In this document: positions 19,101 to 34,041 of the stretch, piece after piece
How positions within the stretch are numbered: position 1 is the stretch's first letter
Layout: every line of letters begins with the position of its first letter
Source of the DNA: Eubacteriaceae bacterium
GTDB lineage: Bacteria; Bacillota; Clostridia; Eubacteriales; Garciellaceae
Assembly: GCA_012838085.1 (NCBI GenBank)
Contig: DUPX01000119.1
Span: 1-57,581 of the forward strand
Reading direction: 5' to 3'
DNA length: 57,581 bases
Translations under genes and position numbers: made by a program
The notes under the pieces: generated by a model
The model's database searches: none
Told to the model about the DNA's origin: nothing
The model's input: the letters and a program-made list of their open reading frames with translations, nothing else

Positions 19101-22100
19101 TAGAAAAATGTGGGCATATTATGAAGATTTTGCTGGGGAACAGGATAACTTTTTACCTCCTGATAATTATCAAGTAGAGCCTCACAATGGTATAGCTCAT
19201 CGCACCTCCCCCACCAATATAGGATTTCTATTAATGGCTATATTATCAGCCAAGGACTTTGGATATATTACTATATTGGAAATGTTAAAGAAGATTAAAG
19301 ATACACTTACCACCATAAAAAAACTGAAAACATGGAATGGGCATCTATATAATTGGTATGATACCCAGTCATTAGAGGTATTAAATCCCCACTATATATC
19401 TACAGTTGATAGTGGAAATTTCATAGCATATTTAATGACACTAAAAGCGGGACTAAAGGAATGTTTGAATAGCAATCTTATTAATATAAACAATGTTAAA
19501 GGATTGGCAAGTGTCTTAAGATTAAGCAGAGTAAAAGATTCGGGTATCATAAAGAATATTATTGATAAAAGTGAAGAGGAGAGTATTTCATTACAAGAAT
19601 GGATAGATCTATTGGAACTTGCAGACACAATAGAGTGTAGTGATGAGTATTGGTATAAAAAGCTAATTATTCTGGTAAATGAAAGTAAATATTTATTGAG
19701 AAAATTCTTTCCAAAAATATTATTAAACAAAAGAAAAACATTAGACAAAGAAGTTATAAATTCTTTAGATTTTATTCAAAAAAATAATAGCCTATTAGAT
19801 TTAGAGATAAGCTATAAGGAACTTAGGGTAAGACTAATAAATTTAGATCAGAATGAAAATAGAACCATTGATTTAGATATAAAGGAAATAATAAAAGATT
19901 TAGAAGGATGCTTAGAAAATATAGATCAGGTAAAAAATAATATCTATGATTATATAATGGATGTTAAAAATATTATAAAAGACACAGATTTTAGTCAACT
20001 ATATAGTGAAGAAAGACAACTTTTTTCTATTGGTTATAATGCCCAAGAAGAAAAGTTAACAGATTCATATTATGATTTGTTAGCCTCGGAAGCTAGAATA
20101 ATAAGTTATTTAGCCATTGTCCAAGGTAAGGTACCTAAAAAACATTGGTTTAAACTTAGCAGGCCATTAACAAAGGTAAATGGCTACCAGTCATTGGTAT
20201 CTTGGACCGGCACAATGTTTGAATATTTAATGCCTCCACTTATAATGAATCATTATGAAAATACATTATTATCTGAAACTTATAAAACAGCAGTAGCGGC
20301 ACAAATAAAATATGGAAGGGAAAGAAAGGTGCCTTGGGGGACTTCAGAATCTGGATATTATGCCTTTGACCTATCCCTAAATTATCAATATAAAGCTTTT
20401 GGAGTGCCAGAACTGGGGTTAAAGAGAGGATTAAAAACTGACATGGTGGTTTCCCCTTATTCCAGCTTATTGGCCTTACCTATTGCACCGATAGAGGCTA
20501 TGAATAATATCTATGACTTAATAGGATCAGACCTTGAGGGTAAATATGGCCTATATGAAGCTGTAGATTATACAGTAAAACGTCTACCTCGAGGACGAAA
20601 TAAAATGATTATAATGAGTTTTATGGCCCATCATCAGGGTATGGGTATCATGGTATTAAATAATATGCTAAATGATAATATAATGAAAAAAAGATTTCAT
20701 AGCCATCCAGTTATAAAAGCTGGAGAAAGCTTATTACAAGAAAAGGTCCCATTAGGTGTAATAACAACAAAGGATTATAAAGAAGAAATTCAACCAATGG
20801 ATCAAGAAGATAGAAAAGTTAATGAGGTTGATATTGAAAGAATATTTGAATGGGCACCCGAAGAACCTCCCCACTACCATATCTTAACTAATGGTTTTTA
20901 TCAGGTAATGATAACAACCCTTGGCACAGGTTTTAGCAGGGCAGGAGATATGCAGATAACTAGATGGAGAGAGGGTTCTCATAATAATTACGGAAACTTT
21001 ATTTTTATAAAAAATCTAAAGAATAATAAAATATGGTCTACTACAGAAAGGCCTATAGGTAAAAAAACAGATAAATACAGGGTGGTATTTTCTGAAGATA
21101 AAGGAGAATTTATTAGAAAGGACGATAACATTGAGTGTCATACAGAAATAGTTATTTCTACAGAACATCCTGTTGAAATAAGAAAACTGACAATTACTAA
21201 CCACGAAACTTTGGAGCAGGAACTGGAAGTTACTAGTTATCTAGAACTAGTTTTGGCGCCCCAGTCAGCAGATATTGCCCATCCTGCATTTAATAATTTA
21301 TTTGTAAGAACAGAGAAAATGGAGGGAATAGATGGAATAATGGCCTCCAGAAGGCCTAGAGGTGATTTTAAAAAGGAAAATTGGTACTTCCATATTTTAA
21401 CTATAGATGGTAAAAGGATAGGGAACTTTGAATATGAAACATCCCGAAACAACTTCATTGGTAGGGCTAGAGTACTATCTAATGCAGAGAAGTTGCATTT
21501 ACCTTTAGATAATAGCATAGGTGCAGTATTAGACCCTATTATAAGCCTTAGATCTAAGGTAAAAGTACCAGCACAGGATAGTATAACTTTGACCTTTGTA
21601 AATGGAATAGGGGATACTAAAGAGCAGGTCCGCTTGCTAGCATTAAAATATAGCGAACCATTATCTGTAAAGCAGGCATTTCAATTGTCTAAGATAAGAA
21701 ATCAAATTCAGGTACAAAATTTAGATATGAGTTTAAAAGAGATTATCCTCTACCAGGATATGTTATCCCATATTTTAAAATTAAGTCCCTTAAGAAGAAA
21801 GCTATCTGATTATCTAAAACAAAATGCCCAGGGACAAAACTGCTTATGGGCCTACGGCATATCTGGTGATTTGCCTATTGTATTGATTTCAGTATCAGCC
21901 ATTCACGAAATGGATATGGTAGAACAGATTATAAAGGCACATAAATATTGGAGAACGAAGGGATTAAAGGTGGATTTAATTCTACTTAATGAAGATGAAA
22001 GTAGTTATTATCAGCCTTTAGAGGAGATGTTAAAAGAAGAAATATTTAATTTAGGTTGTGGAGACTTAATTAACCAGTACGGTGGGCTTTTCATCTTAAA

Positions 22101-24699
22101 TGCCAATATATTACCTGAAGAGGACTATATCCTTTTACTTAGTGTAGCCAGATTTATTCTTAGGAGTGATGAAGAAAACATTACTAAACAGTTGAAAATA
22201 GATAATAATGATTCCTCCCTTCCTCCGATTAAAAAGTTTACTACCCCAATAGAAAACTATCCACTATTAGAAGAAGAGGAAAAAGATTTATTTTTTTATA
22301 ACGGTTATGGTGGATTCACTAGGGATGGTGATGAATATATAATTGAGTTAAAGGATAATCTTCAGACACCCACCCCTTGGATTAATGTAATTTCTAATCC
22401 AGATTTTGGTTTTCAAGTATCAGAAAATGGATCGGGTTTTACTTGGGCAGAAAATAGCAGGGAAAACAAGCTTACTCCCTGGTCTAATGATCCTACCTCG
22501 GATCCTATTTCTGAAGTGATTTACATTAGAGATGAAGAAGATGGAAGAATCTGGTCTCCAACTGGTCTTCCTATCAGAGACCAAGGGAAATACTCTATTC
22601 ATCATGGTTGGGGTTATTCTGAGTTTTATCATGATAGCCATGGTATTAATCAAAATCTGATAATGTATGTACCACTAGAAGAGTCTATAAAGATAAATTT
22701 ATTAAAGCTGCATAATCATAGTGATAAGGAAAGAAGATTGAGTTTAACATATTATATAAGGCCTGTAATGGGGGTAGACCTGGATATTACATTACCTTTT
22801 ATTCTTACTGATTGGAATAAAGAAGGACAATGTATTTTAATAAAGAACCCCTATAATACGGAATATCCCCATTCAATTGTGGGTCTTTCCTGTTCAGAAG
22901 AAATAATATCTTATACAGGAGATAATGAAGAATTTTTGGGGAATCAGGGAAGCTTGGTTAGTCCTAAGGGGTTAATGAGGGAGGCCCTATCTAATAGAGT
23001 AGGAGGGGGTCTTGATCCCTGTGGAGCTATTCAAATAGATATAAAACTCCAGCCAAATGAGAAAAAAAGTATTGGTTTTCTTTTAAGTTATGGTAAGGAT
23101 ATTGAAGAAATAAAGAGTTTGTTAGCACAACATAAGGATATAGAGTATTTGGAAAAGATATTAAGGGAAACAAAAAATTATTGGAGAAATCTCTTAGGCA
23201 AGGTAAAAGTAAGCACTCCTGATGTTTCTATGGATTATTTATTGAATGGGTGGTTATTATATCAAGCAATTGCCTGCAGGTTGTGGGCAAGATCAGCTTT
23301 TTATCAATCTGGTGGGGCATATGGATTTAGAGATCAGCTACAGGACACTATGAATATTTTGCCAATATTTCCCCAGGCATCAAGAGAACAAATATTAATT
23401 AATTGTGCCCATCAATTTTTAGAGGGGGATGTCCAGCACTGGTGGCATCCAGGAGCAGAAGAGAAAGGAATTCGTACCCGCTTTACTGACGATTTGCTGT
23501 GGCTTCCCCTATGTGTGACTGAATATATAGAACAAACAGAGGATTATAGTATTTTATTAGAAGAAGTGCCCTATTTGGAGGAAGAACCTTTGGAGGAAGG
23601 ACAGGATGAAAGGTATGGGGTACCAAGGATTTCTGAGTATTCTGGCACAGTATATGAACATTGTATAAGGGCAATTGATAGAGGGTTAAAATTTGGAGAA
23701 CATGGAATCCCTCTAATGGGTTCAGGGGATTGGAATGACGGTATGAGTACAGTGGGCAATAAAGGAAAGGGAGAAAGTATCTGGCTAGGATGGTTTATAT
23801 ACTTGATTTTAAACCGATTTATACCCTTATGTGAATTAAAGAAGGATACAGAAAGGGCAGAAAACTATAAAAGGAAAGCAGAGTATATTAGGGAAAATAT
23901 TGAATCAAATGGTTGGGATGGTAATTGGTATAGGAGGGCATATTTTGATGATGGAACCCCTTTAGGCTCTATTGAAAATGATGAATGTATGATTGATTCA
24001 TTAGCCCAGTCCTGGGCAATTATTTCAGGAGGAGGGAGCAAGGAGAGAAGTCGGAGGGCAATGAATGCAGTGGAACAACATCTAGTAAAGAAAAATGAGG
24101 GGCTGATTTTATTATTTACTCCCCCCTTTGATGATGGAGAATTGAAGCCAGGTTATATAAAGGGATATGTGCCAGGTGTACGGGAAAATGGTGGTCAATA
24201 TACCCATGGGGCTACCTGGGTAATAAATGCACTGGCAATGTTGGGGGAAGGAGAAAAGGCTGTAGAGTATTTTAATTTAATAAATCCTATAAATCATAGT
24301 CGTACCCAAATAGAATGTGCCACTTATAAGGTAGAGCCTTATGTAATGGCAGCAGATGTATATGCAGTTTCTCCCCATATTGGCCGAGGGGGATGGACAT
24401 GGTATACAGGAGCGGCAGGTTGGATGTATACAGTAGGTATTAAGTATATTTTAGGGTTACAACCTAGGGGGGATAAACTATATATTAATCCATGTATTCC
24501 TAAGGAATGGAAAGAATATAAATTAAGCTATAGGTATGGTAATAGTAGATATATTATTAGAGTATTAAATCCCCATGGGCTTAGTAGGGGAGTGGCCAAT
24601 ATAAAAATAGATGGAAAATCCCTAAGGGAAAACTATATTCCCTTAAGGGAGGATAAAAAACAATATGAGGTAGAAGTAGTTATAAATAAAGCAGGGTAG
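16150..24699 (+). CDS. cgs: Cyclic beta-1,2-glucan synthase-like giant multidomain protein (GT84-like + (alpha/alpha)6 middle domain + GH94 phosphorylase-like C-terminus)
   Basis: 2849 aa. TM segments flank a GT-A region (ITLDRDTILP, GYGLIQPRI, LHRWVRGDWQ). The middle region has SPTNIGFLLMAIL, VDSGNF and SWTGTMFEYLMPPL. The C-terminal GH94-like region has RDQLQD, SGDWNDGMS and GGQYTHGATW. Confidence 0.8.
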   Translation: MIEINDVLLSPEQLQQHGIRIAENHRLSSKEKTAVSLKGRLKKNYDEIFNIYKNLNKDIKEDIYLTPPCEWLLDNFYIIENQVKSIYHGLSRERTQKLKVLDNNNFKGILRIYALSLEMVSHSDGRIDEKLILDFLEAYQTRKTLTIAELWVLPLMLVIALIENINIISKKVENSQSQLRIIKEWEGLEKEHLFISIKKHIETKKSIHPILAEFLVKILKKNSIHNKEFEAYLLEKLEKREENIEDIIQQSYHQQAARKVSIGNSITSIHTIENLNWNNIVEKLSVVERILRMDPAGIYSRMDFESRDYYRREIIAIAKECGVAESYVAKKAIDCAKNFADKNVILKRKHVGFYLIDSGKKQLYNSLGKKNRVVIVEKLSSYTLPIFISIAFLATLLGIYGYFKYMENNPSVANGVSLSGFIILLSLIPLSDISIGLYNWLHIKNTKPRFVPKLTFPNGIGEENATLIVMPTLLSDPEDVEGTINQLEVHYLSNRDENFYFAIAGDFIDGDREHLSQDQEILDRAKIAIEHLNKKYEKNPFLYFHRHRIKSETQNRWMGWERKRGALIELNNLLRGEKNTSYSYIVGDLSKLSKIKYVITLDRDTILPIEEGKKLVGAIAHPLHQPIINTEKNVVVEGYGLIQPRINLDIKSVNKTYLSRIFAGQGGIDPYTTAISDVYQDLFGEGIFTGKGIYHIDTFRKCLGDSLPTNSILSHDLLEGSYLRTGLASDIQLIDGYPSNYNSYMARLHRWVRGDWQLIQWLSNWVIDGKGKRVKNPINSISKWKILDNLRRSLVSTFNLAFIILALLFFPGNIFVWLVLPLFSIFFPTILGIFNLLTRKDRIIARERFNGNMVFGLKASLYQSLLSYIFLVHHSYVMMDAIIRTLYRVKISNKNLLEWKTAAEVEKDITNDTQGYFIRMKWSFLTSILFIFFSLWANPLRFSIAIILSLPWLFSPFIAKKVSEEKVLIEDIRKEDKIVLDRLCRKMWAYYEDFAGEQDNFLPPDNYQVEPHNGIAHRTSPTNIGFLLMAILSAKDFGYITILEMLKKIKDTLTTIKKLKTWNGHLYNWYDTQSLEVLNPHYISTVDSGNFIAYLMTLKAGLKECLNSNLININNVKGLASVLRLSRVKDSGIIKNIIDKSEEESISLQEWIDLLELADTIECSDEYWYKKLIILVNESKYLLRKFFPKILLNKRKTLDKEVINSLDFIQKNNSLLDLEISYKELRVRLINLDQNENRTIDLDIKEIIKDLEGCLENIDQVKNNIYDYIMDVKNIIKDTDFSQLYSEERQLFSIGYNAQEEKLTDSYYDLLASEARIISYLAIVQGKVPKKHWFKLSRPLTKVNGYQSLVSWTGTMFEYLMPPLIMNHYENTLLSETYKTAVAAQIKYGRERKVPWGTSESGYYAFDLSLNYQYKAFGVPELGLKRGLKTDMVVSPYSSLLALPIAPIEAMNNIYDLIGSDLEGKYGLYEAVDYTVKRLPRGRNKMIIMSFMAHHQGMGIMVLNNMLNDNIMKKRFHSHPVIKAGESLLQEKVPLGVITTKDYKEEIQPMDQEDRKVNEVDIERIFEWAPEEPPHYHILTNGFYQVMITTLGTGFSRAGDMQITRWREGSHNNYGNFIFIKNLKNNKIWSTTERPIGKKTDKYRVVFSEDKGEFIRKDDNIECHTEIVISTEHPVEIRKLTITNHETLEQELEVTSYLELVLAPQSADIAHPAFNNLFVRTEKMEGIDGIMASRRPRGDFKKENWYFHILTIDGKRIGNFEYETSRNNFIGRARVLSNAEKLHLPLDNSIGAVLDPIISLRSKVKVPAQDSITLTFVNGIGDTKEQVRLLALKYSEPLSVKQAFQLSKIRNQIQVQNLDMSLKEIILYQDMLSHILKLSPLRRKLSDYLKQNAQGQNCLWAYGISGDLPIVLISVSAIHEMDMVEQIIKAHKYWRTKGLKVDLILLNEDESSYYQPLEEMLKEEIFNLGCGDLINQYGGLFILNANILPEEDYILLLSVARFILRSDEENITKQLKIDNNDSSLPPIKKFTTPIENYPLLEEEEKDLFFYNGYGGFTRDGDEYIIELKDNLQTPTPWINVISNPDFGFQVSENGSGFTWAENSRENKLTPWSNDPTSDPISEVIYIRDEEDGRIWSPTGLPIRDQGKYSIHHGWGYSEFYHDSHGINQNLIMYVPLEESIKINLLKLHNHSDKERRLSLTYYIRPVMGVDLDITLPFILTDWNKEGQCILIKNPYNTEYPHSIVGLSCSEEIISYTGDNEEFLGNQGSLVSPKGLMREALSNRVGGGLDPCGAIQIDIKLQPNEKKSIGFLLSYGKDIEEIKSLLAQHKDIEYLEKILRETKNYWRNLLGKVKVSTPDVSMDYLLNGWLLYQAIACRLWARSAFYQSGGAYGFRDQLQDTMNILPIFPQASREQILINCAHQFLEGDVQHWWHPGAEEKGIRTRFTDDLLWLPLCVTEYIEQTEDYSILLEEVPYLEEEPLEEGQDERYGVPRISEYSGTVYEHCIRAIDRGLKFGEHGIPLMGSGDWNDGMSTVGNKGKGESIWLGWFIYLILNRFIPLCELKKDTERAENYKRKAEYIRENIESNGWDGNWYRRAYFDDGTPLGSIENDECMIDSLAQSWAIISGGGSKERSRRAMNAVEQHLVKKNEGLILLFTPPFDDGELKPGYIKGYVPGVRENGGQYTHGATWVINALAMLGEGEKAVEYFNLINPINHSRTQIECATYKVEPYVMAADVYAVSPHIGRGGWTWYTGAAGWMYTVGIKYILGLQPRGDKLYINPCIPKEWKEYKLSYRYGNSRYIIRVLNPHGLSRGVANIKIDGKSLRENYIPLREDKKQYEVEVVINKAG

Positions 24700-24714
24700 T
24701 CTTGACTATCCTGC
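24691..24714. terminator. Hairpin in the 22-nt gap between convergent cgs and sorC-type genes
   Basis: GCAGGGTA pairs with TATCCTGC (8 bp, one GU). The hairpin overlaps the cgs stop codon. There is no clear U-tract. Confidence 0.35.
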
Positions 24715-24721
24715 TAATTGC

Positions 24722-25699
24722 CTATAGGGAAACATTGTTATAACTATTTAAAATATCTTTAGCAACCTGTTCTTCTGTAATTAGAACATTCATAATTTTA
24801 CTTTTTAATGCAGAGTGTATAATAGCAGAGTTTTCACTACCACCACTTATGGCTATACGATATTTAATATTTTTCAACTTGTTCCTATCAACGGCAATGG
24901 TTCTATTGCTAATTTCAGAATCTACAAAATTTCCTGCCTTATCAAAGAACCATGTACCCATATTTCCTATGGCACTACTTTCAATCAAACCTTCATAATC
25001 AAGTTTTGTAAACATATTAACATCTTTCATAATGGAATTATTTATATTACCAATACCGAATAGGGCTATATCTGACTTCTCAGCAGATTCTAAGGCTGCT
25101 GATATATTTTTCTCTTTAATAAGCATATCCCGTAGTTCTTTTGAAGATACATATAAGGGTGCATTTATTGCTAATGCTTGACCATTTAAGTTTTTTGCCA
25201 GTCTATGACATATCATATTTGGCTGGAAATCATTCTGTAAATAATCAATGCAACCTATAAGAGGAGCTACTATAATATTTTCCTTAGGGTGGTGCTGATA
25301 TCTGATTGCCATTTCATATAATATCTTACCCCAAGAAAGGGTAATAGTCATATTGTCTTCCAAGATTTGATTTAAATATTCACTGGCGGCATCTGCAAGT
25401 TGTATTGCAATATCTTGACTTTTTATTTTTTCACTATGGGTAGGAATTACGATTGCTCTTTTTAATCCCCAGAGTCTTTCCAGCTTTCTTTCTAAGTCAA
25501 AACAATATAGCCCTGAATTTTTAATTTGAATTTGGACTATATCCTTCAACCTTGCCTCGCTTAATAGGAGGGATACCATGGAACGGGAAATAGACATTTT
25601 TTTTGCGATAGTACTTTGTTGAAGACCATCTATGTAATACATATAAGCAACTTCTACAAGCCTTCTTTGTCTTTGATCATGGACCATAAACAAGTTCAT
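24722..25699 (-). CDS. SorC/DeoR(Bsu)/CggR-family sugar-binding transcriptional regulator
   Basis: N-terminal HTH (VAYMYYIDGLQQSTIAKKMSISRSMVSLLL) and a C-terminal sugar-phosphate-binding domain. The start is ambiguous between 25699 and 25687; the ORF-track extension to 25777 is unlikely. Confidence 0.75.
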   Translation of the reverse strand: MNLFMVHDQRQRRLVEVAYMYYIDGLQQSTIAKKMSISRSMVSLLLSEARLKDIVQIQIKNSGLYCFDLERKLERLWGLKRAIVIPTHSEKIKSQDIAIQLADAASEYLNQILEDNMTITLSWGKILYEMAIRYQHHPKENIIVAPLIGCIDYLQNDFQPNMICHRLAKNLNGQALAINAPLYVSSKELRDMLIKEKNISAALESAEKSDIALFGIGNINNSIMKDVNMFTKLDYEGLIESSAIGNMGTWFFDKAGNFVDSEISNRTIAVDRNKLKNIKYRIAISGGSENSAIIHSALKSKIMNVLITEEQVAKDILNSYNNVSL

Positions 25700-25978
25700 C
25701 CTTTCATGATTTATATGAATAAATTCAAGAATAATATAGTAAAAGTTTAAAATAGCATCATATGAGTATTTTAGCATAAAAAATGTAAAAATAGTTATAA
25801 TAAAAAAGAAAGATTTTACAATCTTGTATAGAATACATATAATGGAATTAGATTATGTTAATAAGACTGTATAAATTTTAACAAAATCTAAAAATTCTAT
25901 TTAAATTTCTTAATATTTATGTTATACTAAAATTGTACTAAAAGCAATGACTAAAAAAAATCAAGGAGGGAACAAAAA

Positions 25979-27220
25979 ATGAACAGAGAAGATGCTAATA
26001 AAGAAGTACTTAAACGCTTGCAAGATTCTGAAGTTTTTGTTGTAGGCATGGGCATCGCATTGGATGTAGTGCCTGGTATGAAGAAAAACCTAATAATGCA
26101 CGCTGGTCCACCTATTGAGTGGGAAAGAATGTGCGGCCCTATGCAAGGTGCTGTAGTTGGTGCTTTAATATATGAAGGTTTAGCAGAAAATGAAGAAGAT
26201 GCTAGAAAGTTAGCTGCTAGTGGAGAAATTGAATTTGCACCAAACCATCATCACCAATCAATAGGACCAATGGCAGGAGTAATATCCCCATCAATGCCAG
26301 TCTATATACTTCAAAACCGTACTTATGGAAACTATTCCTATACTAATATGAATGAAGGTTTAGGAAAATGTCTCAGATTTGGGGCCTTTGATGAAAATGT
26401 TATCAGCAGATTAAAGTGGATGGAAAAAACCCTTTATCCTATTATGAAGGAAGCTATAGAGCTTTCTGAGGGTATAGATATGAAATCAATGGTTGTACAA
26501 GCCCTACAATCTGGTGATGATTGTCATAATAGAAATAGAGCAACTACTGCGTTATTTGCTAAGCAAATAGCTCCATTTATTGCTTTAACAGGTGCTGATA
26601 AAAAAGACATATCAGATGTATTTAAGTTTATAGACGGTAATGAACACTTTGCAATTAATATTACTATGGGTATGTGCAAGGCTATTGCAGATGCGGCCCA
26701 TGGAATTGAAAATAGTACAATTGTTACAGCTATGTGTAGAAATGGTACGGACTTTGGAATAAGAATTAGTGGATTGGGAGATAAATGGTTTACAGCTCCA
26801 GCTAATACTCCAGTAGGACTATTTTTCCCAGGCTTTACTCAAGAAGATGCTAACCCAGATATAGGAGACAGTACTATTACAGAAACTGTAGGTATTGGTG
26901 GATTTGCTATGGCAGCAGCTCCAGCTATTGTGAAATTTGTTGGAGGAACTCCAAAGGATGCTATTAATTTCACCTTAGAAATGTATGAAATAACCTCTAC
27001 TGAAAATGATAACTTTAAGATTCCTACATTAGACTTTAGAGGTACTCCTACAGGTATTGATTTAATAAAGGTATTGGAAACAGGTATACTTCCAAGAATC
27101 AATACTGGTATGGCTCATAAGGAACCAGGTATTGGCCAAGTAGGTGCAGGATTAGTACAAGCACCAATGGATTGCTTTATGAAAGCAGCTGAGTATATGG
27201 CAGAGCAAATGGAAGACTAA
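25979..27220 (+). CDS. DUF1116 (YlbE/AllG-like) protein
   Basis: 413 aa. HAGPPIEWERMCGPMQGAVVGALIYEGLA and the overall length resemble E. coli YlbE-type DUF1116 proteins. Strong AAGGAGGG SD. Confidence 0.65.
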   Translation: MNREDANKEVLKRLQDSEVFVVGMGIALDVVPGMKKNLIMHAGPPIEWERMCGPMQGAVVGALIYEGLAENEEDARKLAASGEIEFAPNHHHQSIGPMAGVISPSMPVYILQNRTYGNYSYTNMNEGLGKCLRFGAFDENVISRLKWMEKTLYPIMKEAIELSEGIDMKSMVVQALQSGDDCHNRNRATTALFAKQIAPFIALTGADKKDISDVFKFIDGNEHFAINITMGMCKAIADAAHGIENSTIVTAMCRNGTDFGIRISGLGDKWFTAPANTPVGLFFPGFTQEDANPDIGDSTITETVGIGGFAMAAAPAIVKFVGGTPKDAINFTLEMYEITSTENDNFKIPTLDFRGTPTGIDLIKVLETGILPRINTGMAHKEPGIGQVGAGLVQAPMDCFMKAAEYMAEQMED

Positions 27221-27285
27221 ATAAGCATTATACCCGAAAGGGTTAATAAAATATATTTTTTAAATACAAAAGGAGGGTTTTATTT

Positions 27286-28080
27286 ATGACAAAAAAATTA
27301 TATGACTTATCACAAAACCTTGGGGTAGATACACAGTTTTGGCCTTTTTATCCACCCTTTGAGTCAAAGTATTTCAAGAGAAAGCCTGAGCATGGTGTTA
27401 ATGCTCAATATATCCAAACTTCAAACCACATAGGAACTCACTTAGATGCTCCACGACACTTTATTACTGATGGAATGACCATTGATCAAATTCCACTAGA
27501 GTGGTTATATGGACCTGGAGTTATAGTAGACTTAACTGATGAAATGGACGATTTAGCAGTATATACTCCAGAAATGATTGAAAAAAGAGTAGAAGTTAAA
27601 GAAGGGGATATCCTAATACTTCATACAGGATGGCATAAATATGCAACTGGTGGATCAGAACCAGATGAAGAAAGATATATCCATTTACATCCAGGCGCTC
27701 ATCCTGATATGGTTCCATGGCTACTTGAAAAGAAAATCAAGTTATGGGCTGTTGATGCTGTGTCCACTGACCATCCAATGGACTTACCTATTGGAAGATT
27801 CTTAGGTAAAGGTACCTTTGGACAATGTGAAAGAGTTAGAGCTATAGCTGAAAAGAAATTCGGTGGTAAAGAAGCTGTTGATAAATTATTCCCAGTAGAA
27901 GACTACCAATTAACTCATAATAAGCTATTTAAACATAATTGCTTCCACGGAGAAAACCTAGGTGGGGAAATTAGTGCACCAGAACTACAAAATAAGAGAT
28001 TAACTGTAGGACTTTTCCCATGGAAATTTGAAGGTGGAGAAGCAGCATTCTGTAGAGCAGTTGCATTCTTAGAAGACTAA
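27286..28080 (+). CDS. Cyclase-family metal-dependent hydrolase (kynurenine formamidase / isatin hydrolase fold, PF04199-like)
   Basis: Signature HIGTHLDAPRHF (HxGTHxDxPxH) plus a downstream DAVSTDHP motif. Confidence 0.8.
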   Translation: MTKKLYDLSQNLGVDTQFWPFYPPFESKYFKRKPEHGVNAQYIQTSNHIGTHLDAPRHFITDGMTIDQIPLEWLYGPGVIVDLTDEMDDLAVYTPEMIEKRVEVKEGDILILHTGWHKYATGGSEPDEERYIHLHPGAHPDMVPWLLEKKIKLWAVDAVSTDHPMDLPIGRFLGKGTFGQCERVRAIAEKKFGGKEAVDKLFPVEDYQLTHNKLFKHNCFHGENLGGEISAPELQNKRLTVGLFPWKFEGGEAAFCRAVAFLED

Positions 28081-28100
28081 GATTTTATTAGTTTACAATT

Positions 28101-28133
28101 ATTAGCTACTGGGGAATTTCCCCAGTAGCTAAT
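28101..28133 (+). other. 14-bp perfect hairpin without a U-tract, after the cyclase gene
   Basis: ATTAGCTACTGGGG-AATTT-CCCCAGTAGCTAAT. It is followed by AAAAATC, so it is not a canonical intrinsic terminator on either strand. Confidence 0.6.
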
Positions 28134-28375
28134 AAAAATCATCACCCATCTGGAAAAATTGAAATCATTATACGTTATAAATAAAGTAGTATATAACAAC
28201 TTGGATGAAAAAAGCCATAAAGCCACATAAAGCCAATAAAATATTAAGTGTTGGCAAGTATTGCTTAGGCTGTACGTAGTTTTAATAAAGGCTTAATTTC
28301 TAGCCTTAAAAGAATAGATAAAAAAGTTTTTTTATTCCCTCCAAGGGAAAATATAAACTATTTAGGAGGAAACTC

Positions 28376-29782
28376 ATGTCTCAAGATAGAAAAGAGAAAA
28401 GAAGATTACATGGCGAACAGCCTGTATGGGATGAAAACCCAAGAATAATTGAGCCTATTTTAGGTATCGAAGACAAACCAAATACTTGGTGGGAAAGTTT
28501 ATTATATGGTTGGCAACATACATTAGTGGACATATCCCCCTTTGTTTTACCTCTTTTAGTAGCTGCTGCTGCAGGACTTTCTCCAGAGGAAGGTGCAATA
28601 TGGGTAAACCGAGGCCTTTTCACTATGGGTATAGCTACATTTATTATGACAACTATAGGAAATAGACTTCCAATTGTTCAGGGGCCATCAGCAACAGTTA
28701 CTGGGGCGGTAGCTTCAGTTGCAGGATTATATGGACTACCTGCTATGTGGGGTGGAATTTTCGTTGGTAGTATTACCGAGATGCTTATCGGTGCTTCAGG
28801 TCTTTTAGGGGTACTTAGAAAAGTTTTCCCAGTAATTGTCTCTGGTATTGTGGTTGTAACCATAGGATTTTCCTTGGGTAGAACTGCTGTTGGTTGGATG
28901 ATTGGTGATGGTAGTATAGAAAATATTATTTTAGGCGTATCAGTTATATTGTTAATATTTATTTTACAATTTACTACTAAAAATATTGCAGGAGGCATAA
29001 TTTCCAGAGGATCTATATTTTTCTCCATTTGGATTATTGGTTTAGGAATGGCTGGGGTTATGGGTATGGTAAACTGGCAATTAATAGCTGATAGCCCATG
29101 GTTTGCGCTTCCATCCCTATTCCCATATGGTGGACCTGGGTTTGGATGGACCTTTGGTATAGGAGCAATAATAGGGGTATTTGTAGGTATATTAGGCTCT
29201 ATTATTGAATCAATAGGTGACTATGCTGCTACTTGTGCAGTTGCTGGAGAAACTTTTAGAGTAAAACACATGAATAGGGGTATTTTTGCCGAAGGTCTAG
29301 GCTGTGTTGTTGCTAGTTTCTTTGGTGGTATTCCAGTAACTAGTTATACTCAAAACATTGGTATCATTGGTACTACAAAAATAGCTTCAAGATTTGTTGT
29401 TCAAGTTGCTGCTGTAATTTTATTGCTTTATGGATTAAGTCCTAAGTTTGGTGCATTATTAGTTGCAATACCTAGACCAGTAATTGGTGCAGTATTTGTA
29501 GTAGTATGTGGTACAATAGCTGTGTCTGGAATCCAACTAATAGGTTCCGCAAAGCAAACCACAGCAAACTCTTTTATAGTAGGTACAACATTATTATTCT
29601 CTATAATTATTCCTATATATGCCCAATATGATATGGGTGAAATTGTTAACAATTTACCTTCATTAGTTCAATTATTCTTAACAAATACAGTTATCATAGC
29701 TGTTATTATGGGTATTGGATTAAACCTACTTATAAATGTATTATTTAAAGGTGAAGAAGAGGATGAAGAAATAGTAAGTTAA
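28376..29782 (+). CDS. NCS2-family nucleobase:cation symporter (xanthine/uracil/SLC23-type permease)
   Basis: About 12-14 TM segments. Contains LPIVQGPSATV, and IESIGDYAA and TSYTQNIG, which are characteristic of NCS2 permeases. Confidence 0.85.
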   Translation: MSQDRKEKRRLHGEQPVWDENPRIIEPILGIEDKPNTWWESLLYGWQHTLVDISPFVLPLLVAAAAGLSPEEGAIWVNRGLFTMGIATFIMTTIGNRLPIVQGPSATVTGAVASVAGLYGLPAMWGGIFVGSITEMLIGASGLLGVLRKVFPVIVSGIVVVTIGFSLGRTAVGWMIGDGSIENIILGVSVILLIFILQFTTKNIAGGIISRGSIFFSIWIIGLGMAGVMGMVNWQLIADSPWFALPSLFPYGGPGFGWTFGIGAIIGVFVGILGSIIESIGDYAATCAVAGETFRVKHMNRGIFAEGLGCVVASFFGGIPVTSYTQNIGIIGTTKIASRFVVQVAAVILLLYGLSPKFGALLVAIPRPVIGAVFVVVCGTIAVSGIQLIGSAKQTTANSFIVGTTLLFSIIIPIYAQYDMGEIVNNLPSLVQLFLTNTVIIAVIMGIGLNLLINVLFKGEEEDEEIVS

Positions 29783-29894
29783 TCTTATAATTATATGAAT
29801 TTAATAAATAGGGAGAAGAAATAATTAATTCTTCTCCCTATTTTCTTAATTTGAAGAAACAATATATTCTATTAGAAATGTACGGGGTGAGAAA

Positions 29895-30407
29895 ATGTCT
29901 TTATTAGATAAGGATTCCAGAATTATAATGGCTTCAGAGTTGGCAAGAGAATATAAACTAAAAGAATACCATTGTTCTGAATCTGCTATTCGAGCCTGCG
30001 CCCAGGCTTTGGATATAGACCTTCCTGAGGGTGTGATAAAAGCAGCTTGCGGATTTAGGGGTGGGGGAGGTGGTTATCTAGATCGTTGTGGAATTATTGA
30101 GGCAGGGAGTATGCTTATTTCATATTTATATGGACGAACATCACCAGATGAGCCAGATTGGCCATATAGCTATCTTATATGTTTACTACATGATAGATTT
30201 AAGGAATGTTTTGGTTCTATATATTGCCGAGATATCTTTCCTGAAGCTAGCAAGGACAAGAGTCTTCCTTCTTGTATCAACACATATACTCAAGGGTGTG
30301 AAATAATCACAAAATTATTATTAGAGGTGGATGAACTACTAGATAATGCACCAGAAATTGTTCGCCAGAACGGTGTTTTTTGGAAGGATGTAGTAAATAA
30401 GTTGTAG
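29895..30407 (+). CDS. C_GCAxxG_C_C family (putative redox-active) protein
   Basis: Cys pattern CSESAIRAC...AACGFRGGGGG...RCGIIEAG...YCRDIF fits the C-GCAxxG-C-C family layout. Confidence 0.7.
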   Translation: MSLLDKDSRIIMASELAREYKLKEYHCSESAIRACAQALDIDLPEGVIKAACGFRGGGGGYLDRCGIIEAGSMLISYLYGRTSPDEPDWPYSYLICLLHDRFKECFGSIYCRDIFPEASKDKSLPSCINTYTQGCEIITKLLLEVDELLDNAPEIVRQNGVFWKDVVNKL

Positions 30408-30420
30408 AAAGATTATCTAA

Positions 30421-30466
30421 AAAATAGCTTAGTAGAAAATCATTCTCTTCAGCTAAGCTATTTTTT
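30421..30466 (+). terminator. Intrinsic terminator after the C_GCAxxG_C_C gene
   Basis: AAAATAGCTTAG pairs with CTAAGCTATTTT, followed by a T-run. Confidence 0.7.
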
Positions 30467-30570
30467 AGATAAAAAAATGTATCTTATTTACTATAAAAGA
30501 CCATGTTTTTTGTTAATTGATTCCAATAATAGAGTTTTTAAAATTAATTTTATATCAAGGATAGAAATTA

Positions 30571-30617
30571 CTACTATATATGGTATAATAAGAAAATAAT
30601 ATACATATATAATGTGT
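30571..30617 (+). promoter_or_regulatory. Candidate tandem NrdR boxes overlapping the nrdJ promoter
   Basis: Two imperfect AT-rich palindromes resemble acaCwAtATaTwGtgt: CTACTATATATGGTAT at 30571..30586 and an element ending ATATATAATGTGT at 30617. Their centres are about 31 bp apart, and the first overlaps a TATAAT at 30584..30589. Confidence 0.45.
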
Positions 30618-30669
30618 TTTTATTTTTATACAGTAGCATGCTGTAGTAAATCATAAAGGAGGAGCTGAC

Positions 30670-33606
30670 TTGAGAGAACTACTGGTTAGAAAGTTTACCC
30701 AGGGATTGGAAGTAGAAAAAGGAAGAACGGTTTACGATTTATTTGAATGGAAGAATGTAGATGTATTTATGAAGAACTGGAAAACAGGTAAGATAATATT
30801 GGATATGAAGGATTTAGAATTTCCTGCTAACTATAGTCAAAATGCCTGTAATATTATTGCCAGTAAGTATTTTAGGAAGGCAGGAGTTCCAAATAAGGTA
30901 GGCTATGAAAGAAGTATGAAGGAAGTAACTGATAGGCTGGTGGGATTTTGGGCAGATGCCCTTATGGATGAAGGACTTATTGAAGATAAAAACCAATGGC
31001 AAATCTTTTATGATGAACTTGCCTATGCTTTTTTAAATCAGATGTGGGCACCTAATTCTCCCCAATGGTTTAATACAGGATTACAGAGAAGCTATGGCAT
31101 TTCCGGTACCCCTGATGGTCATTATTATTATGATGAAAAATTGGGAAAAGTAGTTGAAAGTAAGGATAGGTATACCCGAACTCAGGCATCAGCTTGCTTT
31201 ATAGTGTCTATTGCTGACCAATTAATGGGTAAACATTCCATATCCGAACAATATGTAACAGAAACAAAACTTTTTAAAGGAGGCTCAGGGGTTGGGACAA
31301 ACTTTTCTGCCCTTAGAGGAAAAAATGAATCCTTATCTAGTGGTGGTTTTTCCTCAGGCATGATGAGTTTTTTACAAGGATTGGATAAAAATGCTGGAGC
31401 AATAAAATCTGGAGGAACAACCCGAAGGGCGGCAAAAATGGTTATCGCTGATATTAATCATCCTGAAATTGAAGATTTTATAAAATGGAAGGCAAGGGAA
31501 GAACAAAAGGTAAGAGACTTAGGGAAGTTAGGCTATGACACTTCTATGGAGGGAGAGGCTTATCAAACAGTAGGGGGACAAAATAGTAATAATTCAGTAA
31601 GAGTTAATGGCGATTTTATGGAAAAGGTGGCAAACCTAGATAATAATCCAGAAGCCCAAATAGAATTAGTAGGTAGGGTGGATAATAGGATAAATAAAAA
31701 AGTAGATGTAAGGCATCTATGGAATCTTATAAATAAATCCGCTTGGGAATGTGCTGACCCTGGTCTTCAATTTGATGATAGGTTTAATGAATGGCATACT
31801 TGTCCTGCAGGTGAAGATGGAGAACTATGGGCGAAACACAATAGAATTAATGCCACAAACCCTTGTTCTGAATATGCTTTTTTGGATGACACCGCATGTA
31901 ACTTGGCCTCAATAAATGTGTATAGATTTTATAATGAAGAAAGAAACATTTTTGATGTGGAATCTTACATACACTTAATAGGCATTATGCAAATGGCTTT
32001 AGAAGCATCAATACATGGGGGACATTTCCCCACAGAAGATATTGCTCGAAAGAGCTATATGTTTAGAACTACAGGGGCAGGCCTAGCCAATACAGCTTCA
32101 TTATTTTTAGCTATGGGTTATCCCTATGATTCTGAAAAAAGCAGGAATTTAAATGCTGCCCTTGTAGGTATATTGACAGGTCATTCTTATTATACCTCCT
32201 CCCTTATGGCAAAAAAGGTTGGACCTTTTCCAAAGTATAGTATTAATAGCGATAGTATGAGAAGGGTAATTAGAAATCATGCTAGGGTGGCAGGGGCTTT
32301 AGATAGTACTTATGAAGGGTTGAGCTATCAGCCTATAGAAGTTGATCATGATATATTAAAAAGGGAAGGGCTAGACTATTTAAGTAATTCCTTGAGAAAT
32401 AGCTGGAAAAAGGCTATTGAAGCAGGAGAAAAGTATGGATATCGTAATGCCCAGGTTAGTGTGATTGCTCCAACAGGGACAATCTCCTTTGCCATGGACT
32501 GTGGTGCCACTTCTATTGAACCTTACTATAACCATGTTCTTCATAAGCAATTAATAGGTGGAGGAACAATGGAAATAGTAAATCCTATTTTAGAGATTGC
32601 ACTAAAGAATTTAAATTATTCTTCAGAAGAAATAATGGACATTATAAATTATTTGATGGAAAAAGATAATCAGGGAATGTTAGTCAATAGAAATATAAAA
32701 GATGCCCCCCATTTAAAGAAGGAGCACTTGAAAATTTTTAAAACTGCTAATGATATTTCACCGGAAGGTCATGTAATGATGGTGGCAGCAATAACCCCCT
32801 TAATAAGTGGCTCAGTATCTAAAACGGTAAACTTACCTAATAGCTCAACTATTGAAGATATTGAAAGAATAAATTTATTAGCCTGGAAAAAGGGAGTTAA
32901 AGCCATTGCAATTTATAGAGACGGATGTAAAGCTAGCCAACCACTATTATCAGGATCTAAAGCTGATAGGGAATTAACCTTTGAAGAGATGGATTATAAA
33001 GATTTATTAGAATATGCAAAGAATTGTAAGGATGAAATACCTACAAGGAAAAAGCCTGGAGGAATGAGGTCAGGTAGGACCCATGCAGCCAAAATAGGGG
33101 ATATAGAGCTATATGTAACTATAGGTTTTTATGAAGATGGTGGTATAGCAGAAATATTTGTATCTACCGATAAGGAAGGTACGGTAGTAAAAGGTTTATT
33201 AGCATCCTTGTCAAAGGCAATATCTAATATGCTCCAATATAATATCCCCCCAAAAGAAATCTCTAGGTTATTAAGGGGACAACAATATGAGCCATCAGGT
33301 TTTGTGGGCAGGCATCCTTATATAAAGTACGCCTCCTCCATATCAGATTTAGTAAGTAAGATGATAGATATAGAATTAGGTGACTTTACAAGATGTCAGG
33401 TAAAACCAGATAGTTTCCATTTTATAAATAAAAATAATTATAAAGAGGTGTTAGCAACAAAGGAAACACTTCAGGATATGTCCAAAGATATAGAGGGGGA
33501 AAGACTTTATGGGGAAATTTGCAGTAATTGTGGAAGCGATAATATGGTGATAAATGGTACCTGCAAAGTATGCAAAGATTGTGGTTCCACCACTGGATGT
33601 AGTTAA
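30670..33606 (+). CDS. nrdJ: Class II adenosylcobalamin-dependent ribonucleotide reductase
   Basis: 978 aa. Contains WAPNSPQWFNTG, active-site region NPCSEYAFLDDTACNLASIN, SKTVNLP and a C-terminal Zn ribbon CSNCGS...CKVCKDCGS. The TTG start follows an AAAGGAGG SD. Confidence 0.9.
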   Translation: MRELLVRKFTQGLEVEKGRTVYDLFEWKNVDVFMKNWKTGKIILDMKDLEFPANYSQNACNIIASKYFRKAGVPNKVGYERSMKEVTDRLVGFWADALMDEGLIEDKNQWQIFYDELAYAFLNQMWAPNSPQWFNTGLQRSYGISGTPDGHYYYDEKLGKVVESKDRYTRTQASACFIVSIADQLMGKHSISEQYVTETKLFKGGSGVGTNFSALRGKNESLSSGGFSSGMMSFLQGLDKNAGAIKSGGTTRRAAKMVIADINHPEIEDFIKWKAREEQKVRDLGKLGYDTSMEGEAYQTVGGQNSNNSVRVNGDFMEKVANLDNNPEAQIELVGRVDNRINKKVDVRHLWNLINKSAWECADPGLQFDDRFNEWHTCPAGEDGELWAKHNRINATNPCSEYAFLDDTACNLASINVYRFYNEERNIFDVESYIHLIGIMQMALEASIHGGHFPTEDIARKSYMFRTTGAGLANTASLFLAMGYPYDSEKSRNLNAALVGILTGHSYYTSSLMAKKVGPFPKYSINSDSMRRVIRNHARVAGALDSTYEGLSYQPIEVDHDILKREGLDYLSNSLRNSWKKAIEAGEKYGYRNAQVSVIAPTGTISFAMDCGATSIEPYYNHVLHKQLIGGGTMEIVNPILEIALKNLNYSSEEIMDIINYLMEKDNQGMLVNRNIKDAPHLKKEHLKIFKTANDISPEGHVMMVAAITPLISGSVSKTVNLPNSSTIEDIERINLLAWKKGVKAIAIYRDGCKASQPLLSGSKADRELTFEEMDYKDLLEYAKNCKDEIPTRKKPGGMRSGRTHAAKIGDIELYVTIGFYEDGGIAEIFVSTDKEGTVVKGLLASLSKAISNMLQYNIPPKEISRLLRGQQYEPSGFVGRHPYIKYASSISDLVSKMIDIELGDFTRCQVKPDSFHFINKNNYKEVLATKETLQDMSKDIEGERLYGEICSNCGSDNMVINGTCKVCKDCGSTTGCS

Positions 33607-33747: not shown

Positions 33748-34041
33748 ATGGGAAATTTTAAAGATATTTTAGAACAATATTTTAAAAAGTTAGAACTATA
33801 TATTCCAGTAGTGGAGCGAGTTCATGGAGAAAATCATCCGGAATTCTATGATGTACGGAAGCTATTTGATCAAATAGCACAAAAGATTGGGAATTTATCA
33901 AAGGATAAACCAAAACTAGATGGGGTGTTTAAGGAATTAAGAAAAATTACAGATAATTATACTGTACCTGAGGATGTATGTGAAAGTTATCAGGCAGTAT
34001 ATGAGATGTTGGCAGAACTGGACAGAGCATACCATAAATAA
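33748..34041 (+). CDS. Small hypothetical protein with RIC/hemerythrin-like VHGxxHPE motif
   Basis: 97 aa. VERVHGENHPEFYDVRKLF resembles the helix motif of YtfE/RIC di-iron proteins. Good AAGGAGAGG SD. Confidence 0.5.
   Translation: MGNFKDILEQYFKKLELYIPVVERVHGENHPEFYDVRKLFDQIAQKIGNLSKDKPKLDGVFKELRKITDNYTVPEDVCESYQAVYEMLAELDRAYHK

Follow-up and report, generated by a model that had tools for sequence, protein, structure and literature searches.

To our knowledge, the breakdown of oxalurate in Escherichia coli, described in 2024, is the sole context in which AllG, a protein of the DUF1116 family, has been assayed. In this organism AllFGH phosphorolyses the acyl-urea oxalurate, giving oxamate plus carbamoyl phosphate (PMC11326118). 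The locus studied here encodes an AllG homologue followed by a metal-dependent amidohydrolase of the PF04199 'cyclase' family and a permease of the NCS2 family, and is part of a 57.6-kb stretch of DNA of approximately 31% G+C (contig DUPX01000119.1 of a Eubacteriaceae bacterium), which in its full length is called the window. In most AllG-bearing genomes, the neighbours of AllG are a PF04199 hydrolase together with a molybdenum (Mo) hydroxylase, and not allantoin genes. With modest confidence we take the locus to be a reduced version of a cluster that is widespread, has not been characterised by experiment and would serve the catabolism of cyclic ureides, that is, of nucleobase-like rings containing an -NH-CO-NH- unit. 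Its interest lies more in this widespread parent cluster than in the trimmed copy present in the window. A literature search on DUF1116, oxamate carbamoyltransferase, FdrA combined with cyclase, barbiturase/ureidomalonase, oxidative pyrimidine degradation, and PF04199 combined with Mo-hydroxylase brought up no published account of an AllG–cyclase cluster, in line with a previous sequence-only reading of the window, which had been unable to match the locus to a known pathway.

The window shares with AllFGH of E. coli the AllG subunit (50% identity over 375 amino acids to AllG/YlbE), and the chemistry common to both is likely to be phosphorolysis of an acyl-urea with formation of carbamoyl phosphate. 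AllF (FdrA), AllH and a linked carbamate kinase (AllK) were not found in the window; related loci do carry FdrA, AllH and carbamate kinase beside AllG. Unlike in E. coli, AllG is paired with a PF04199 hydrolase, which relatives supplement with a Mo-hydroxylase as well as a CN-hydrolase and a CoA-transferase, and FdrA in Bacillota consists of a 518-amino-acid protein plus a tail of 57 amino acids. The substrate is probably not derived from allantoin.

In Rhodococcus and Mycobacterium, the oxidative pyrimidine pathway comprises a uracil/thymine dehydrogenase, a barbiturase of the AtzD/TrzD family, and ureidomalonase. Its logic matches the one proposed here: a Mo-hydroxylase acts first, an amidohydrolase opens the ring, and the resulting acyl-urea is cleaved. 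This three-enzyme set is paralleled by loci from soil that combine a Mo-hydroxylase, a cyclase of the type found in the window (type A, see below) and an amidase, and enzymes of the AtzD (barbiturase) family stand in for the cyclase in some AllFGH clusters. By contrast, the putative ring opener of the AllG–cyclase clusters is a PF04199 metal hydrolase and not an enzyme of the AtzD/barbiturase fold, and the acyl-urea would undergo energy-conserving phosphorolysis instead of hydrolysis to urea.

KynB and isatin hydrolase are characterised PF04199 proteins, the latter being a precedent for the opening of cyclic amides in this family. They have the Pfam domain and the metal motif in common with the window cyclase. 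The motif, given as HxGTHxDxPxH in the sequence-only reading, was confirmed together with the domain (134 bits) and reads H48-I-G-T-H52-L-D54-A-P-R-H58 (residues 48–58); it is invariant in the subfamily alignment. Nevertheless, the solved PF04199 members, including KynB and isatin hydrolase, match the window cyclase with only about 36–57 bits. Unlike these two enzymes, the window cyclase has a C-terminal extension of approximately 100 amino acids, which is kept within its subfamily, and its genomic partners are entirely different.

The gene for AllG (413 amino acids; YlbE-like; PF06545, 321 bits) is located on the forward strand at positions 25979–27220, and the cyclase gene (264 amino acids, type A) follows on the same strand at 27286–28080 after a spacer of 65 bp. 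A non-coding gap of 296 bp (28081–28375) precedes the permease gene (28376–29782, forward strand; 468 amino acids; PF00860, 231 bits), whose product belongs to the xanthine/uric-acid-permease-like branch of the NCS2/NAT family. The locus is flanked by a gene for a regulator of the SorC/DeoR(Bsu) family (probably 24722–25687, reverse strand, with the longest open reading frame (ORF) extending to 25777; PF04198 sugar-binding domain, 204 bits), which is divergent from allG, and by a gene for a C_GCAxxG_C_C protein (29895–30407, forward strand; PF09719, 62 bits). Coordinates and domains of these five ORFs had been noted before, as had strong ribosome-binding sites for the four co-directional genes, and all of them were confirmed by inspection, the ORF list and Pfam/NCBIfam scans. 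The sites read AAGGAGG for AllG and the cyclase, AGGAGG for the permease and GGGGTGA for the fourth co-directional gene. When the whole window was searched by tblastn (queries being reference proteins of related loci; ~70 FdrA sequences, E ≤ 1e-3), no FdrA/AllF, AllH, carbamate kinase, CN-hydrolase, Mo-hydroxylase, CoA-transferase or PucR was detected, which bears out the earlier statement that genes for FdrA, YlbF/DUF2877 and carbamate kinase are missing.

AllG of the window has thousands of homologues with 55–87% identity, and this degree of conservation covers Bacillota, Chloroflexota, Spirochaetota, Verrucomicrobiota and Gemmatimonadota and reaches even into the Bathyarchaeia. The near-invariant family columns, defined by conservation of at least 97% among 88 further homologues (E. 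coli AllG being one of them), number 78, and all of these are present in it. It matches PDB entry 3clq, an uncharacterised protein of Enterococcus faecalis, with an E value of 6e-142. The AlphaFold model is of moderate quality (pLDDT 70.7), the C-terminal third being poor.

Neighbourhoods were compared in 80 loci from species-representative genomes, each centred on one AllG homologue and designated here by L numbers. They originate from Bacillota, Chloroflexota, Spirochaetota, Verrucomicrobiota and Gemmatimonadota, plus one metagenome-assembled genome (MAG) each of a Nitrosomonadaceae and a Bathyarchaeia member. ORFs of the neighbourhoods were clustered and representatives named with Pfam and NCBIfam scans, whereas presence was tallied by tblastn within a radius of 8 kb from AllG, independently of ORF calling. 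FdrA/AllF was the most frequent neighbour (70 of 80 loci), followed by the PF04199 cyclase (62), the subunits of a three-subunit CoxLMS-type Mo-hydroxylase (44–48), AllH (35), CN_hydrolase (25), the NCS2 permease (24), a family-III CoA-transferase (CoA_transf_3; 20), PucR (18), carbamate kinase (9) and AtzD (5). In 56 of the 73 loci with enough flanking DNA, the cyclase is encoded directly downstream of AllG. Also recurrent near AllG were genes for maturation of the molybdenum cofactor (XdhC, MobA, YqeC), NmrA, CoxG, a thiolase-like/DUF35 set, and a set for a biotin-dependent Na+ decarboxylase. The proposal that AllG, cyclase and NCS2 permease belong together is thus upheld, in particular since their order is fixed in close Bacillota relatives, and the idea of a ring-opening system for nucleobase-like compounds was broadly right in view of Mo-hydroxylase, AllF/AllH, carbamate kinase, PucR and AtzD as neighbours. 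The cyclase is in its usual position in the window and a nucleobase-type transporter is present, while an amide hydrolase and a Mo-hydroxylase are lacking; judged by sequence comparison, the locus is a partial member of the conserved AllG–cyclase neighbourhood.

The sequence-only reading had regarded DUF1116 as a stand-alone protein. This is not characteristic of the family because FdrA is encoded within 8 kb in 70 of the 80 genomes, and for the same reason the absence of FdrA from the window is a derived loss. Among the loci without FdrA, only three have an adequate upstream flank; FdrA-less AllG loci occur in several contexts (L010, L007–L009, L096/L097, L057).

FdrA itself is organised in different ways. 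The C-terminal segment of approximately 46 residues that is part of the E. coli-type protein is a separate ORF of 56–58 codons in Bacillota (57-amino-acid tail beside the 518-amino-acid protein; PRK06091 positions 509–554), which always accompanies FdrA and not AllG (L001, 9771–9944; L004, 9786–9959; L091, 6797–6967; L182, 11573–11743). Fusions occur as well: FdrA and AllG form a single ORF of 1043 codons in a Sphaerochaeta MAG (L051), and FdrA–AllH fusions comprise 824 and 853 amino acids (P0221, P0269). These fusions support a physical association of the three subunits.

The AtzD proteins of five AllG loci qualify as cyanuric-acid amidohydrolase equivalogs (535 bits; cut-off 360 bits). None of these five loci also carries the cyclase, and because of this mutual exclusion the cyclase and AtzD look like alternative ring openers that feed the same AllFGH/carbamate kinase step. 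The loci in question (L015, L037, L049, L065, L068) belong to the anaerobic Bacillota Sporosalibacterium, Tissierella pigra, Flavonifractor porci, [Clostridium] ultunense and Clostridiales VE202-15, and the AtzD cluster extends about 3–10 kb upstream of AllG. Its gene order is PucR, AtzD, a protein of 418 amino acids without known function, NCS2, AllH, FdrA and AllG; an extra amidohydrolase is present in L037 and L065, and carbamate kinase comes next in four of the five loci, not being detected in L049. This arrangement suggests an ATP-yielding route for rings of the cyanurate or barbiturate type.

AllG-adjacent cyclases fall into two groups, of which type A is 66–88% and type B 37–50% identical to the window cyclase. 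In other phyla, the 66–88% identical proteins adjoin either AllG or Mo-hydroxylase and amidase. A reverse scan of metagenome contigs with the type-A cyclase as seed yielded 80 loci, 39 of them with flanks of 1.5 kb or more to either side. In these 39, Mo-hydroxylase was found in 35, amidase or CN-hydrolase in 28, FdrA in 14 and AllG in 12; no SorC regulator or C_GCAxxG_C_C protein was present in any of the cyclase-seeded metagenome loci. Because a Mo-hydroxylase (35 of 39) and an amide hydrolase (28 of 39) are so much more frequent than AllG (12 of 39), the type-A cyclase is, by its genomic company, primarily a partner of these two enzymes, with AllFG as an optional extra branch. On contigs from soil and sediment, a compact module consisting of a three-subunit Mo-hydroxylase, the type-A cyclase and an amidase occurs without AllG or FdrA (L116, L118, L120, L122, L124, L134, L146, L151 and others). 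This AllG-free module offers candidate genes for the oxidative pyrimidine pathway, which is an orphan, or else for a different N-heterocycle pathway.

How far the window copy has been trimmed becomes evident from its close relatives. In Bacillota with 75–87% AllG identity, the genes are arranged in the fixed order AllG, cyclase, CN_hydrolase and NCS2. FdrA and its tail are encoded upstream of this group in Biomaibacter, Lutispora, L092 and L094, in L091 downstream of the permease, and are locally missing in L010 and L096/L097. The Mo-hydroxylase is missing in several close Bacillota relatives, too, and the associated regulator varies between PucR, LysR, AraC and SorC. Some complete clusters, for example those of Halanaerobiales (L055, L062) and Biomaibacter (L001), additionally encode a carboxyltransferase together with a biotin carrier and OAD-beta, a set that fits decarboxylation of malonyl- or methylmalonyl-CoA. 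In a neighbour-joining tree, the window groups with L010, L007 and L091. DNA of the window and of L010, its closest relative, is colinear through the SorC, AllG and cyclase genes (74% identity), and colinearity resumes in the permease gene (76%). It breaks exactly at the CN-hydrolase gene of L010, in place of which the window has the 296 bp of non-coding DNA, and in this gap (28081–28375) no CN-hydrolase remnant was detected by tblastn even at E = 10. With only AllG, cyclase and permease left, the window copy is the most reduced version that we observed.

At a dS of approximately 1.5, comparison with L010, which also lacks FdrA, gave a dN/dS of 0.048 for AllG; the cyclase has a value of 0.052 and the NCS2 permease one of 0.086. 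By this measure, AllG and the cyclase of the window are under strong purifying selection although AllF, AllH and an amide hydrolase are not encoded nearby. On account of the low dN/dS and the retention of all 78 near-invariant AllG residues, the copy does not look dead.

We propose the following sequence of reactions for the full cluster. A heterocycle would be taken up by the NCS2 or another transporter, oxidised by the three-subunit CoxLMS-type Mo-hydroxylase, and hydrolysed by the PF04199 cyclase (in a few genomes by AtzD) to a linear acyl-urea. From this compound and phosphate, a carbamoyltransferase of the AllF–AllG–AllH type would form an amide and carbamoyl phosphate, the latter serving carbamate kinase for ATP synthesis. 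The amide would then be deamidated by CN-hydrolase or amidase, and the resulting dicarboxylate would be disposed of by the family-III CoA-transferase and the biotin/Na+ decarboxylase. As substrate, we favour a pyrimidine of the barbiturate type; each of the recurrent genes would then have a role. The predicted route would lead from uracil or thymine via barbiturate and ureidomalonate to malonamate plus carbamoyl phosphate, and from malonamate via malonate and malonyl-CoA to acetyl-CoA.

The window copy would retain uptake by the NCS2 permease, ring opening by the cyclase, and AllG, expressed from a sigma-70-type promoter and possibly repressed by the SorC regulator. AllG might release the carbamoyl group without AllF or together with an unlinked partner. 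Provided that AllG is active without AllF, the module could deliver carbamoyl phosphate and nitrogen; otherwise it would be reliant on unlinked genes. When the three genes were deleted together in E. coli, allGH restored 16% and allFG 7% of oxamate formation (PMC11326118), and AllG is the common element of these two combinations, both of which were partly active. A selected pair of AllG and cyclase without AllF, AllH or amide hydrolase thus raises the question, specific to the window, of whether AllG can work alone.

If the proposed pathway is correct, it would represent a common energy-conserving route by which anaerobes and soil bacteria consume nucleobase-type ureides. It would also provide candidate genes for the long-orphan uracil/thymine dehydrogenase and for an alternative barbiturase, and account for many genes that currently bear the label "DUF1116", "cyclase family" or "arylformamidase". 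It is tempting to go further and to speculate that acyl-urea phosphorylases form a broad family with DUF1116/AllG as catalytic core and with interchangeable ring openers (PF04199 cyclase or AtzD), that the AllG–cyclase clusters specify an undescribed, ATP-yielding anaerobic oxidative pyrimidine (barbiturate) pathway with a non-AtzD "barbiturase", and that the window harbours a minimal module of AllG, cyclase and permease which produces carbamoyl phosphate from a cyclic ureide taken up by the cell, without AllF and AllH. In this extended form, the idea is tentative and we regard it as rather unlikely.

Several points weigh against our interpretation of the locus as a reduced cyclic-ureide cluster. 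AllF, AllH, carbamate kinase, hydroxylase, amide hydrolase and CoA-transferase all escaped detection in the window by tblastn. Among AllG-seeded loci with a type-A cyclase and adequate contigs, all except the window contain a CN-hydrolase or an amidase, L083 being a possible second exception. Single deletions of allF, allG or allH abolished oxamate formation in E. coli (PMC11326118), and since the window is devoid of AllF and AllH, AllG alone may be inactive as a carbamoyltransferase. Nor was an unlinked FdrA evident: of the 120 best homologues of the nearest FdrA, not one lay on the 1.84-Mb contig that bears the window proteins, and on this indirect evidence a genome-wide absence of FdrA is probable. 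A Foldseek search of AllG against the PDB returned no structural relative except 3clq, so that the catalytic mechanism cannot be read from the fold. Each chemical step, the substrate and the regulation go beyond homology and are what we infer from gene content, conserved neighbourhoods, losses and purifying selection. Finally, the permease is xanthine/urate-like, with a Q-type motif and a better match to the pbuX model (TIGR03173, 278 bits) than to the uracil models UraA/RutG (80–85 bits), and these features suit a purine-derived compound no less than a pyrimidine. As to the fold of AllG, an SCS-like structure was also considered; it was not supported by the Foldseek search, from which 3clq emerged as the only match.

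The module may accordingly be seen as acting on a purine-derived compound, such as xanthine, urate or an oxidation product like parabanate, from which the cyclase would generate oxalurate or a ureido-imidazole for carbamoyl transfer by AllG. We consider this doubtful, yet it is the alternative to be taken most seriously. Oxalurate is the sole proven substrate of AllFGH (PMC11326118), AllFGHK adjoins biuret/triuret genes in nitrifiers (PMC12625717), PucR-family regulators are associated with many clusters, and representatives of CoA_transf_3 resemble oxalate/formyl-CoA-transferases as well. The recurrent neighbour families, however, were not recognised to include allantoinase, allantoate amidohydrolase or ureidoglycolate dehydrogenase, nor was the thiamine pyrophosphate-dependent oxalyl-CoA decarboxylase recognised in the clusters. 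What several complete clusters do have is the biotin-dependent Na+ decarboxylase set, which suits malonyl- or methylmalonyl-CoA and not oxalyl-CoA.

The permease deserves a closer look. Within the NCS2/NAT family it resembles PbuX, PucJ/K, XanQ and UacT in having the PF00860 domain, pbuX as its best NCBIfam model and a NAT motif with glutamine in first position (QNIGIIGTTK; consensus Q-N-x-G-x-x-x-x-T-K). A leading glutamine is typical of purine-type NAT proteins and a leading proline of ascorbate-type (SLC23) proteins. Unlike the PbuX group, the window permease stays below the subfamily cut-off (278 versus 414 bits), and no purine riboswitch is located upstream. Orthologues with 72–79% identity occupy the same slot in the close relatives L001–L004, L010 and L011 and were seen only in AllG–cyclase clusters of such relatives; in L091, L092, L094 and L096/L097, the permease in this slot was called by position alone. 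NCS2 permeases of other cluster types are only 24–35% identical, which means that the type of permease is not a fixed feature of the clusters. Ascorbate, listed as a candidate in the sequence-only reading, has been discarded, together with SLC23-type uptake, because the NAT motif begins with Q and not with P.

A decaying remnant of a larger cluster, without a working pathway in its host, would explain the stepwise losses relative to close relatives, in which FdrA, its 57-amino-acid tail and AllH have disappeared and the CN-hydrolase gene was cleanly replaced by 296 bp. It would likewise be compatible with the lack of Mo-hydroxylase, carbamate kinase and CoA-transferase in the 57.6 kb and with the requirement for all three AllFGH subunits in E. 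coli (PMC11326118). The ORFs are intact, however, and preceded by strong ribosome-binding sites, and the dN/dS of AllG and cyclase remained at approximately 0.05 across a dS of about 1.5 in a comparison with another FdrA-less locus. Together with the 78 conserved AllG residues and the recurrence of FdrA-less AllG loci, this makes decay decidedly improbable as an explanation compared with a reduced but selected cluster.

Still less probable is the original model of a single SorC-controlled system of four genes, in which a C_GCAxxG_C_C redox protein and a stand-alone DUF1116 protein would serve the use of a nucleobase-like compound that is sensed as a phosphosugar. Gene order and orientation are as described in that model. 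The SorC protein has an N-terminal helix-turn-helix (HTH) and the PF04198 sugar-binding domain in common with DeoR of Bacillus subtilis and the sugar-phosphate-responsive repressors of the SorC family, and B. subtilis-type DeoR is its best NCBIfam model (NF053881). Its score of 203 bits is far below the cut-off of 420 bits, though, and the cut-off of the LsrR model was not reached either. Translation probably starts at the ATG at 25687, which is preceded by the ribosome-binding site GAAAGGA and yields a protein of 321 amino acids (318 in the orthologue). With this start, the divergent orientation described earlier stands while the length of the promoter region has to be revised from 200 bp to approximately 290 bp.

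Only one orthologue of the regulator was found, in L010 (64% identity), where it is likewise divergent from AllG; this is the only other such pairing. The L010 regulator abuts a sugar operon with a galactitol-type (EIIC-GAT) phosphotransferase system (PTS) and PfkB. The next SorC homologues (47–49% identity) reside in operons for an EIIC-GAT PTS or an FGGY kinase that also encode acetoin-dehydrogenase-like complexes, and none of these PTS or sugar-operon genes is present in the window. Because the divergent SorC–AllG pairing is kept in two different flanking contexts (window and L010), the regulator may control the AllG operon. Just as well, it could have been left behind by an adjacent sugar operon. 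The divergent arrangement is as described earlier, and the functional link is uncertain given the homologues in sugar operons and the absence of SorC from all of the approximately 160 loci scanned (80 genome and 80 metagenome loci).

The best match to a sigma-70-like promoter upstream of AllG is located on the forward strand at 25815–25843 (TTTACA-17-TATAAT, 11 of 12 positions; a consensus match only), and the total of promoter-like sites in the intergenic region does not exceed that in shuffled sequences. The palindrome TGTATAGAATACA pointed out previously does exist in a single copy, at 25825–25837 within the spacer of this promoter-like site, although one base off the implied position. This placement would suit a candidate operator in the four-gene model. 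Palindromes with 5-nt arms are, however, no more frequent in the intergenic region than expected (5 observed versus 5.6 ± 3.1 in shuffles), and only the core TATAGAATA is kept in L010. No second copy was found in the window, including the region upstream of the permease. On these grounds, namely lack of enrichment over shuffles, its single copy and its partial conservation in L010, the palindrome was not retained as an operator and is at best a statistically weak candidate for one.

The co-directional orientation of the four genes was confirmed; what does not hold is their continuity, as hairpins follow the cyclase gene (28099–28135) and the permease gene (29806–29843). The first, on the forward strand, has a perfect stem of 18 bp (TTATTAGCTACTGGGGAA/TTCCCCAGTAGCTAATAA; dG -28.7, z -6.9) without a U tail. 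It is very stable and marks the site of the missing CN-hydrolase gene. The second, also on the forward strand, is terminator-like with a U-rich tail (dG -23.7, z -4.75) and would end the permease transcript, separating the C_GCAxxG_C_C gene from it. A further hairpin is present 3' of the C_GCAxxG_C_C gene. An Rfam scan of 24500–31000 revealed no family and no purine riboswitch, apart from two chance-level matches on the terminator hairpin. The hairpin at 28099–28135 was also considered as a repeated mobile or REP element and dismissed as such, as there is a single copy in the window.

Neither SorC nor the C_GCAxxG_C_C protein occurred within 8 kb of AllG in any of the 80 genome loci, and both were absent from the 80 metagenome loci. 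Because the C_GCAxxG_C_C gene was never found near AllG or cyclase in the scanned loci and is preceded by the terminator-like hairpin, it is probably adjacent to the module and outside it, contrary to its inclusion in the system proposed at first. The four-gene model can point to another redox protein with cysteines or Fe-S motifs in the post-permease slot of relatives. Along with the terminator-like hairpin, the chance-level palindrome and the sugar-operon context of the nearest SorC homologues, the L010 regulator included, the 160 negative loci nonetheless speak against this model.

An assignment to an ordinary known pathway, be it the canonical allantoin/oxalurate branch with AllFGH or tryptophan/kynurenine formamidase metabolism, can practically be dismissed despite 50% identity to E. 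coli AllG and the label "arylformamidase" given to the cyclase by one database source, since AllF, AllH and AllK were not detected by tblastn, allB, allC and allD were not recognised among the window ORFs scanned (no direct search for them was made), the cyclase reaches only 61 bits with the arylformamidase model TIGR03035 (cut-off 223 bits) and about 55 bits with solved KynB/isatin hydrolases, no kynA- or kynU-like gene was recognised in the ORFs scanned, and the cyclase subfamily associates with Mo-hydroxylases. Given the low TIGR03035 score, the kynurenine- or isatin-type substrates envisaged in the sequence-only reading are likewise not supported.

The slot that harbours the C_GCAxxG_C_C gene in the window is often filled in close relatives by a QueG-like or reductive-dehalogenase-like Fe-S protein following NCS2. 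It contains two 4Fe-4S motifs and scores below the family cut-offs (L010, 11555–12310; L004, 15059–15814; L092, 9349–10617).

The genes surrounding the locus are unrelated to the pathway, and window proteins were also found in many metagenomes. On the 5' side are genes for a 2849-amino-acid GH94/cyclic-glucan-synthase-like protein, a methylpurine-DNA glycosylase and MgtE, and on the 3' side those for NrdJ and a pyridoxal phosphate (PLP) enzyme of the methionine gamma-lyase type. The 2849-codon ORF (16150–24699, forward strand) is convergent with the SorC gene, and its product combines two GH94 supersandwich stretches with a GH94 catalytic domain and a glucoamylase-like domain. This protein is similar to a cyclic beta-1,2-glucan synthase/phosphorylase, an unusual find in a Firmicute-like genome with 31% G+C. 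Further upstream, an NTP_transferase domain is split between two forward-strand ORFs in different frames: profile positions 1–129 are found in an ORF of 131 codons (13641–14036) and positions 138–239 at the start of the ORF at 14039–16111, whose 690-amino-acid product also has hexapeptide and phosphomannomutase domains. The split region (13641–16111) is a frameshifted gene or reflects a sequencing error. Downstream of the locus, a forward-strand ORF of 97 codons (33748–34041) matches only the C-terminal part of the iron-sulfur repair di-iron protein RIC/ScdA (approximately profile positions 150–202 of 216), and its product is a truncated or stand-alone hemerythrin-like domain. A protein with DUF438, hemerythrin and PAS domains is encoded on the forward strand at 35689–36909, downstream of the methionine gamma-lyase-type gene, and is a putative sensor of O2/NO or iron.

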